Assembly: GCF_003334785.1 (NCBI RefSeq) | Contig: NZ_QOWV01000047.1 | DNA: 4,409 bases | Source of the DNA: Escherichia coli | GTDB lineage: Bacteria; Pseudomonadota; Gammaproteobacteria; Enterobacterales; Enterobacteriaceae | Strand: one strand, 5' to 3' | Shown: positions 1 through 4,409 of the stretch, piece after piece | Layout of the letters: every line of letters begins with the position of its first letter | Numbering within the stretch: the stretch's first letter is position 1 | Notes under the pieces: model-generated | Databases searched by the model: none | Told to the model about the DNA's origin: nothing | What the model saw: the letters and a program-made list of their open reading frames with translations, nothing else | Program-made: the position numbers and the translations under genes

Positions 1-60
1 TGGCCGGCAAACCGGGTACGCGATCTGTTGCCCTGGAAAGTTGATCTGAGCTCTCAGTAA
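1..60 (+). CDS. 3' terminal fragment of an upstream ORF (partial, 19 codons then TAA); identity not determinable from this fragment, possibly murI by E. coli synteny
   Basis: Frame 1 is open from position 1 and reads WPANRVRDLLPWKVDLSSQ before TAA at 58-60. Codon usage is plausible. Too short to identify the protein; murI is only suggested because it lies upstream of rrnB/murB in E. coli K-12. Confidence 0.3.
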   Translation, partial: WPANRVRDLLPWKVDLSSQ

Positions 61-92
61 ATATCAATACGGTTCTGACGAGTCGCTTACGA

Positions 93-2329: not shown

Positions 2330-3280
2330 TTATTTGCGTAGTCTGACCTCTTCTACCGCATGATTAGCACTTTTCGTCAGGATTAAACTGGCGCGCTCAC
2401 GAGTAGGTAGAATATTTTGCTTTAAGTTCAGCCAGTTGATCTCTTTCCACAATGTCATGGCAGTCTTAATCGCTTCTTCTTTAGTTAATTTCGCGTAGTT
2501 ATGAAAATAGGAATCCGGGTCGGTAAAAGCCCCTTCGCGGAATTTCAGAAAACGGTTGATATACCATGTCTGAAGTAAGTCTTCCGGTGCATCAACATAT
2601 ATCGAAAAATCGACAAAATCAGAAACAAATACATGATGTGGATCGTGTGGATAATCCATCCCGCTCTGTAAGACATTTAACCCTTCAAGAATTAAAATAT
2701 CAGGCTGAACAACCGTTTTATCTCCATCCGGGATCACATCATAAATAAGATGTGAGTAAACAGGTGCTGTAACGTTTGGCACGCCGGATTTGAGATCGGA
2801 AACAAACTTCACCAGGCGATGCATATCATACGATTCCGGGAAGCCTTTCTTCTTCATCAGACCACGTTCTTTCAGAACCTGATTAGGGTGAAGGAAGCCA
2901 TCTGTAGTGATCAGTTCAACACGACGATGTTCCGGCCAACGGCTTAATAGCGCCTGCAATACACGGGCGGTTGTACTTTTCCCCACCGCGACACTGCCAG
3001 CAATACTGATAATGTAAGGAATGCGTTGCCCGTTGGTACCAAGAAACTGTTCCAGAACTGCCTGACGGCGCAGATTCGAGCTTATATAGAAGTTCAGCAA
3101 ACGTGACAAAGGTAAATAGATCTCGGCAACTTCTTCTAACGAGAGATCTTCATTAATACCTTTGAGACGGGCGATCTCATCTTCCGATAACGTCATAGGT
3201 ACGGAATCACGCAGAGCTGCCCACTGGTTGCGGTCAAACTGTAGGTAAGGCGTCATTAACGTTTGCTCTTTTATACTCAT
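2330..3280 (-). CDS. coaA: Type I pantothenate kinase (CoaA), first step of coenzyme A biosynthesis
   Basis: Translation from ATG at 3280 (minus strand) gives the 316-aa protein [20 protein letters not shown]..., which I recognise as E. coli CoaA. Walker A P-loop GSVAVGKST (residues 95-103, nt 2972-2998 on the - strand) contains K101. The six-frame ORF runs further upstream to an ATG at 3436 (368 aa), but the recognised protein starts at 3280. No strong Shine-Dalgarno sequence upstream. Confidence 0.93.
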
Positions 3281-3545
3281 AAGCATGTTTCTGGCGGTCA
3301 TAGCTCTATCGGCAAAGCGATATTTGCCATGGCGCGTCACAGTTCTGTTGAATGGGTTAATGGGCAGGAGGGTAACACCAGATGGGGAGGAATAATAAGA
3401 AAAAATCTCTGCCAGGAAGCTATCGTTGAAAAGCAATGTGACAGATATTCCATCTGATAAAAAGAATTATGGTTTAGCAGGAGCGCATTGTTGAGCACAA
3501 TGATGTTGAAAAAGTGTGCTAATCTGCCCTCCGTTCGGCTGTTTC

Positions 3546-3598
3546 TTCATCGTGTCGCATAAAATGTGACCAATAAAACAAATTATGCAATTTTTTAG
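3546..3598 (+). promoter_or_regulatory. A/T-rich upstream activating region (UP-element-like tract, possible Fis site) of the thrU-tufB operon promoter
   Basis: CAATAAAACAAATTATGCAATTTTTTAG (3571-3598) lies immediately upstream of the -35 hexamer. One candidate Fis-like 15-mer, GCATAAAATGTGACC (3557-3571), has G at position 1, C at position 15 and an A/T-rich centre. Fis activation of this operon is established in the literature; the exact site placement here is my inference. Confidence 0.4.
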
Positions 3599-3627
3599 TT
3601 GCATGAACTCGCATGTCTCCATAGAAT
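3599..3627 (+). promoter_or_regulatory. Sigma70 promoter of the thrU-tyrU-glyT-thrT-tufB operon
   Basis: -35 TTGCAT (3599-3604), 17-bp spacer, -10 TAGAAT (3622-3627), then the GC-rich discriminator GCGCGC (3628-3633), typical of stringently controlled stable-RNA promoters. Predicted transcription start about 3634-3636, a few nt before the mature thrU 5' end (3642). Confidence 0.75.
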
Positions 3628-3641
3628 GCGCGCTACTTGAT

Positions 3642-3717
<76 letters not shown>

Positions 3718-3725
3718 TCAAGTCC

Positions 3726-3810
<85 letters not shown>

Positions 3811-3926: not shown

Positions 3927-4001
<75 letters not shown>

Positions 4002-4007
4002 AGATGT

Positions 4008-4083
4008 GCTGATATAGCTCAGTTGGTAGAGCGCACCCTTGGTAAGGGTGAGGTCGGCAGTTCGAATCTGCCTATCAGCACCA
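4008..4083 (+). tRNA. thrT: tRNA-Thr (anticodon GGU)
   Basis: 76 nt. Acceptor stem GCTGATA/TATCAGC, anticodon stem CACCC/GGGTG with loop TTGGTAA (anticodon GGT), T-loop AGTTCGAATCT, encoded CCA (4081-4083). Confidence 0.95.

Positions 4084-4161: not shown

Positions 4162-4409
<248 letters not shown>

Follow-up and report, generated by a model that had tools for sequence, protein, structure and literature searches.

The thrU-tufB promoter region of Escherichia coli: a conserved stable-RNA promoter beside a candidate coaA promoter

The window analysed here is a stretch of 4,409 nt of Escherichia coli DNA (contig NZ_QOWV01000047.1 of assembly GCF_003334785.1), in which the genes follow the E. 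coli order murB-birA-coaA(-)/thrU-tyrU-glyT-thrT-tufB:

311-1339: murB
1336-2301: birA
2330-3280, - strand: coaA, type I pantothenate kinase, divergent neighbour of thrU, with its ATG at 3280 (open reading frame and annotation)
3642-3717, + strand: thrU, tRNA-Thr(UGU) (ARAGORN, Rfam, RefSeq)
3726-3810, + strand: tyrU (ARAGORN, Rfam tRNA match, RefSeq annotation)
3927-4001, + strand: glyT (ARAGORN, Rfam tRNA match, RefSeq annotation)
4008-4083, + strand: thrT (ARAGORN, Rfam tRNA match, RefSeq annotation)
4198-4409, + strand: tufB (EF-Tu), the final gene of the operon, of which only the 5' part lies in the window (annotation of the identical K-12 region)

The spacer between coaA and thrU occupies 3281-3641; counted from the coaA ATG at 3280 (- strand) to the thrU start at 3642, it has the 361 bp claimed in an earlier note on this DNA. 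It shows 0/361 mismatches to positions 4,175,027-4,175,387 of K-12 MG1655, so that a window position x corresponds to NC_000913.3 position x + 4,171,746. The thrU(tufB) promoter and its upstream activating sequence are thus the same DNA as in K-12, with no promoter difference. Of the 5426 complete E. coli genomes, 5421 carry the spacer, 5240 of them with an identity of 99% or more; among its 5429 matches, two lie on plasmid-labelled records. No feature is annotated inside it in either RefSeq record (this contig and MG1655), and the Rfam search returned the four tRNAs and no other match. In Enterobacterales, Pasteurellaceae and Vibrionaceae, coaA and thrU have stayed divergent neighbours.

The only difference between this strain and the K-12 locus lies about 3.5 kb away. 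Window positions 1-90 hold, in place of the usual rrfB/T1 terminator, the right end of an IS66-family element (the C terminus of an ISCro1-like tnpC, ending ...CGCTTAC). The element end is inserted just 5' of GACAAATCCGCC, in the rrnB terminator region between rrfB and murB, and this junction is covered by 0 of the 5426 complete E. coli genomes. Two further observations concern coaA. A single G+C-rich hairpin (2305-2324) lies between the stop codons of the convergent birA and coaA genes and is probably the coaA terminator, as a T-run follows it only on the coaA side. At the other end of the gene, an in-frame ATG (3284-3286, - strand) two codons 5' of the annotated start (CATGCTTATGAGT) is kept in most Enterobacteriaceae, and no Shine-Dalgarno sequence is evident for either of these two starts.

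The promoter of this operon is already known and well studied, and nothing in the promoter itself is new. The primary work on thrU(tufB) in K-12 is reportedly that of Mizushima-Sugano and Kaziro (1985), Bosch, Nilsson, Vijgenboom and Verbeek (1990) and Verbeek, Nilsson and Bosch (1991). The operon is shown as thrU-tyrU-glyT-thrT-tufB with a single promoter (PMC6735719), and a table from 2023 lists it as activated by Fis and repressed by ppGpp (PMC10100675). Fis contributes to the growth-rate-dependent control of the thrU promoter (PMC2885671), and its binding was measured by SPR on an oligonucleotide with a thrU site, of 10.9 bits, citing Bosch et al. 1990 (PMC2018646). As cited in two further papers, Verbeek et al. 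1991 described activation of thrU(tufB) via Fis-induced bending (PMC7408454), and Mizushima-Sugano and Kaziro 1985 described those sequences of the tufB operon that take a direct part in stringent control (PMC6639932). The ppGpp and Fis dependence of the operon is given here as reported in the literature.

The elements of the core promoter lie immediately upstream of thrU:

3599-3604, + strand: -35 hexamer TTGCAT, matching TTGACA at 3/6 positions
3605-3621, + strand: 17-bp spacer of fixed length and variable sequence, without a TG extended -10 motif
3622-3627, + strand: -10 hexamer TAGAAT, matching TATAAT at 5/6 positions
3628-3634, + strand: G+C-rich discriminator GCGCGCT, with C3629 as the second position after the -10 hexamer
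3635-3641, + strand: predicted start A3635 (NC_000913.3 4,175,381), placed by its invariance, and 7-nt 5' leader ACTTGAT

TTGCAT, the 17-bp spacing, TAGAAT and the GCGCGC that follows it (3628-3633) are all at the positions claimed earlier, and TTGCAT-N17-TAGAATGCGCGC occurs once in the window (3599-3633, + strand). The end of the -10 hexamer is 14 nt from thrU (ARAGORN start 3642). With two hexamers 17 bp apart just upstream of thrU that match the consensus at 8/12 positions, the site belongs to the sigma-70 class; the wording 'near-consensus' used for it in the earlier note is too generous, as the -35 hexamer accounts for only three of these matches and a generic scan misses the site. The discriminator, G+C-rich and with C two bases past the -10 hexamer, is of the rrnB P1 class. 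The same class is indicated by core elements that are conserved in a sub-consensus state, namely the 3/6 -35 hexamer and the G kept at -10 position 3 in 34/51 orthologues.

The motif by itself is not exceptional. A generic sigma-70 scan requiring at least 4/6 matches per hexamer returned five sites in the window, where chance alone would give 6.2, and 3599-3627 was not among them. For the skeleton TTG-N20-TANAAT, the window has one occurrence where 0.25 would be expected, and 42 of 200 shuffles (21%) have one or more. The core motif alone does not exceed chance, and the promoter call is carried by where the motif lies and by how well it is conserved among species. Between the promoter and tufB, the + strand has no predicted intrinsic terminator, as would be expected for co-transcribed genes; together with the single-promoter operon in PMC6735719, this supports the earlier claim that the tRNA genes and tufB are transcribed together.

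For the comparison, 120 loci were gathered from a one-genome-per-species collection with the thrU body as a neutral anchor; the coaA-linked thrU promoters comprise 51 non-identical sequences, which come from Enterobacterales, Vibrionaceae and Pasteurellaceae. In a 12-genus enterobacterial alignment the coaA-thrU spacer is mostly scrambled by substitutions and indels, and two blocks are conserved. Block A (3557-3641) consists of a conserved upstream part, TTGCAT, the spacer of fixed length and free sequence, and TAGAATGCGCGCTACTTGAT. Among the 51 promoters, the TTG of the -35 hexamer is present in all, and Enterobacterales and Vibrionaceae retain the hexamer as TTGCAT or TTGCAA; the spacing is 17 bp, or 16 bp in Pasteurellaceae, while the columns of the promoter spacer hold only about 0-0.4 bits each. 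The -10 hexamer is TAGAAT in 34, TATAAT in 9 and TAAAAT in 8 orthologues, with A2 and T6 invariant. CGC occupies nucleotides 2-4 past the hexamer in 51/51, and the eighth nucleotide, window position 3635, is A in 51/51, with C next to it in 47 and then T in 48 of them. Upstream T-runs are also kept at the same distance in all three orders. This pattern shows purifying selection, in three gammaproteobacterial orders, on every element named in the earlier note, and it supports the stable-RNA promoter architecture proposed there, with each of these elements in place.

From the invariant A at the eighth nucleotide and the match of ACT to the rrnB P1 start in MG1655, we infer, rather than map, a transcription start at A3635 (4,175,381) and a leader of 7 nt. 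The earlier note placed the start about 7 nt downstream of 3627; it is more likely A3635, 8 nt downstream, than 3634. A separate observation concerns Vibrio, in which the thrU promoters carry TTTTTTAAATTTCCTATTGCAAGG... 60 nt 5' of thrU (loci L002, L005, L008, L019, L029 and others). This sequence is close to the UP/-35 region of E. coli rrnB P1 (TTTTAAATTTCCTCTTGTCAGG), suggesting a stable-RNA promoter template common to operons and orders.

Upstream of the core lie an A/T-rich tract and candidate Fis sites, whose centres are numbered from the predicted start A3635:

3572-3598, + strand: A/T-rich UP-element-like tract, including T6 at 3591-3596 (G+C content and T-run conservation)
3505-3519: distal Fis-type site GTTGAAAAAGTGTGC, centre -123, 9/11 match to GNNYRWWWWWYRNNC
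3537-3551: middle Fis-type site GGCTGTTTCTTCATC, centre -91, 9/11 match to GNNYRWWWWWYRNNC
3557-3571: promoter-proximal Fis-type site GCATAAAATGTGACC, centre -71 like Fis site I of rrnB P1, 10/11 match, the best in the spacer

The A/T-rich tract noted earlier upstream of the promoter is evident in the base composition, with a G+C content of 20-23% in 30-nt windows over 3560-3609 and about 0.5 in the flanks; as read from the sequence, the match of the tract to the UP consensus is only partial. A scan with the degenerate consensus GNNYRWWWWWYRNNC placed Fis matches in the E. coli spacer at -71, -91, -114 and -123. Their number is not enriched over shuffled spacer sequence (10 against 7.6 expected at a threshold of at least 9/11, and 1 against 1.0 at at least 10/11), and we therefore rely on positional conservation and on rrnB P1 as a positive control. 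On rrnB P1 the scan returned exactly three sites, at -71, -102 and -143, which are the three mapped Fis sites of that promoter. Across genera, a Fis-type 15-mer with the G...C frame is centred exactly at -71 in 25/26 Enterobacterales, even where its sequence has changed. A G/C-ended site of varying sequence stands at exactly -123 in 16/26, and a middle site occurs in subsets of genera at -102 or at -90 to -92; the candidate site at -91 is the weakest of the three and is poorly conserved. The spacings of 20 and 32 bp would place the predicted thrU sites on one helical face, and the candidates at -71, -91 and -123, with a proximal site near -71, have the layout of a Fis upstream activating sequence. 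We also observed that the -35 hexamer forms an inverted repeat with a conserved GCAA (ATGCAA/TTGCAT, 3585-3590 / 3599-3604).

The second conserved block, block B, lies nearer to coaA:

3353-3405, - strand: block B, candidate coaA promoter, near-invariant in the 12-genus alignment with scrambled flanks
3398->3393, - strand: TTATTA, followed by an 18-bp spacer
3377->3376, - strand: TG
3374->3369, - strand: TACCCT

In the 12-genus alignment, block B is as conserved as the thrU core. It lies 63-115 nt from the coaA ATG, with thrU either 225 or 954 nt away, and because it keeps its distance to coaA despite the insertion of an open reading frame and a variable distance to thrU, we assign it to coaA. 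On the coaA strand, about 50 nt are nearly invariant across genera (ATTTTTTCTTAT...CATCTGGTGTTAMCCTCCTGCCCATTGTC), and the consensus reads ATTTTTTC-TTATTA-(17 or 18 bp)-TG-T-TAMCCT-CCTGCCC-A. In 16/16 sequences the TG and the hexamer positions T1, A2 and T6 are unchanged, with variation at the free positions. The coaA promoter, which the earlier note could not place, most likely lies in block B. Its placement as an extended -10 promoter with a weak -35 element has about an even chance; transcription would then possibly start near A3361, giving an 81-nt leader.

Several other readings of block B were tried and rejected. An alternative coaA -10 hexamer, TATTAT at 3397->3392, loses its essential A2 in 3/16 genera. 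A + strand mini-ORF (AGGAGG-N10-ATG, 3382-3384, 15 codons) loses its start in 2/12 genera, is shifted in frame by a 1-nt gap in four genera and is unannotated in MG1655. A FadR/GntR-type operator in CTGGTGTTACC fits in its left half only, and its right half changes with a C/A polymorphism, so that we judged the likeness to be due to chance. Control of coaA is generally attributed mainly to feedback inhibition of the enzyme. The conservation of block B far exceeds the needs of a weak extended -10 promoter, and for this reason we also considered that coenzyme A synthesis may be under an unrecognised transcriptional regulator with its operator in block B, an idea that we hold to be unlikely.

Two features of the surrounding spacer were observed along the way. 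In six genera (loci L011, L093, L063, L058, L103 and L061), an open reading frame of 173-205 aa on the coaA strand lies between the thrU promoter and coaA, with spacers of about 1040-1160 bp; its acetyltransferase-like character was judged only from the motif WIARDE...LLVH..RR.G.G. It is probably the STM4141 mentioned for Salmonella in PMC6735719. Block B lies between this open reading frame and coaA in three of the six genera, and no recognisable block B was found in the other three. In addition, many genera carry an inverted repeat (for example, CGTGATGC-N8-GCATCACG) about 10 nt 5' of the block B T-run on the coaA strand, equivalent to about 3415-3445 of the window and degenerate in E. coli. 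Changes in its arms keep the pairing, and it is present even without the inserted acetyltransferase-like gene; it may be what is left of a terminator, or else an operator.

Other explanations of the region upstream of thrU can be weighed against these data. One is that the operon is driven from a promoter further upstream, GTGACA-18-AAGAAT at 3438-3467, and that TTGCAT and TAGAAT are incidental. The generic scan does list this site (9/12) and not 3599-3627; however, the scan yielded no more sites than chance predicts, the site lies inside 3420-3500, the least conserved and indel-rich part of the spacer across genera, and it is the elements at 3599-3635 that are invariant in the 51 promoters. 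We regard this explanation as extremely improbable, and both scan matches in the unconserved part, 3438-3467 (+) and 3494->3466 (-), were rejected. The idea that the A/T-rich block 5' of the -35 hexamer serves the divergent coaA promoter instead of thrU has general grounds, as divergent promoters often share upstream regions and a coaA promoter must lie in the same spacer. In the genera with the acetyltransferase-like open reading frame between coaA and thrU, however, the A/T-rich block stays with the thrU core. In the three of these genera that have block B, the A/T-rich block is about 950 nt from coaA and block B is 93-115 nt from the coaA ATG, and a role of the A/T-rich block in coaA transcription can hardly be credited.

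The segment 3557-3588 might also be used by another dimeric regulator, instead of or besides Fis. Its 32 bp make up an imperfect palindrome with its centre at 3572/3573, that is, at -62.5 (-61.5 if +1 is 3634), with the inverted repeat GCATAAAATGT/ACAAATTATGC at 3557-3567 / 3578-3588. The palindrome is better in other Enterobacteriaceae (GCACAAAATGT...ACATTTTATGC), and conservation extends past the 15-bp Fis core (GAGCGATAGAAC). A class I CRP site is a 22-bp palindrome (AAATGTGA-N6-TCACATTT) centred near -61.5; here, with the centre at -62.5, the left half matches it at 8/8 positions, but the right core matches at only 3/5 (AAACA against TCACA). Outside Enterobacteriaceae TGTGA is not conserved: Dickeya, Pectobacterium and Serratia have TCTAA or TATGA in its place, but retain the Fis-type G...C frame at -71. 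Moreover, CRP is not named as a regulator of the thrU-tufB operon in the literature examined. Genomic SELEX in vitro placed an NtrC peak, together with RpoN-holoenzyme binding, in the coaA/thrU spacer at U00096.2 4,173,336, about window position 3567 (PMC8743547). A sigma-54/NtrC promoter behind this peak was rejected, as the spacer has no -24/-12 motif: it holds only 3-mismatch matches to TGGCAC-N5-TTGCW, of which the window has 21 against 21.5 expected. Since NtrC binds DNA through a Fis-like domain, the Fis site itself may account for the peak. The extra conservation could stem from the Fis flanks and from alpha-CTD/UP contacts. Use of this segment by a regulator other than Fis is, in our judgement, decidedly improbable.

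Our preferred reading, that the thrU core belongs with an A/T-rich tract and Fis-type sites, has close parallels among known promoters. The promoter rrnB P1 is the archetypal growth-rate- and ppGpp-controlled stable-RNA promoter. It shares with the thrU promoter the GCGC discriminator with C second past the -10 hexamer, ACT at the start, a TAnAAT hexamer preceded directly by TCCC/TCCA, an A/T-rich tract at -35, and a Fis-type site at -71 with two further phased sites. The two differ in the spacer (17 bp in thrU against 16 bp in rrnB P1), the hexamers (TTGCAT/TAGAAT against TTGTCA/TATAAT), the length of the discriminator (7 against 8 nt) and the further Fis-type sites (-91 and -123 against -102 and -143). 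Unlike rrnB P1, thrU has no tandem P2, and its match to the UP consensus is weaker. The tyrT promoter has three Fis sites near -71, -91 and -122, a GCGC-type discriminator and the core TTTACA-16-TATGAT; its Fis geometry is nearly the same as that of the thrU sites at -71, -91 and -123, although the core hexamers differ.

Taken together, we consider it very probable that 3505-3641 is the single sigma-70 promoter of thrU-tyrU-glyT-thrT-tufB with its upstream activating region, in the regulatory class of rrnB P1 and tyrT. According to this model, RNA polymerase holoenzyme would use TTGCAT as the -35 hexamer, the 17-bp spacer and TAGAAT as the -10 hexamer, both hexamers being conserved as sub-consensus sequences, next to the discriminator GCGCGCT with its invariant C two bases past the -10 hexamer. 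By analogy with rrnB P1, transcription would start from A3635, and the 7-nt leader would be trimmed off tRNA-Thr during maturation. By the same analogy, the sub-consensus core and the G+C-rich discriminator would produce a short-lived open complex, making the output sensitive to ppGpp/DksA and to growth rate. High basal strength may come from the A/T-rich tract at the -35 hexamer and from Fis dimers bound on one helix face near -71, -91 and -123. Fis at -71 would be placed for contact with the C-terminal domain of the polymerase alpha subunit, and with the A/T-rich tract it may recruit or stabilise the polymerase, while the distal Fis sites, as the cited literature suggests, may bend the DNA. 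The coaA gene would be driven by its own separate promoter region at 3353-3405, about 230 bp further upstream.

The thrU-tufB promoter is a textbook case of coupling the supply of tRNA and EF-Tu to growth rate. What the comparison adds is a footprint: an invariant TTG, CGC and start A, fixed spacing and a Fis-type site at -71 throughout Enterobacterales. In addition, the coaA promoter, so far poorly characterised, gains a candidate position in block B that can be tested. The footprint, which spans several orders, shows that selection acts on the sub-consensus core and the discriminator as such.
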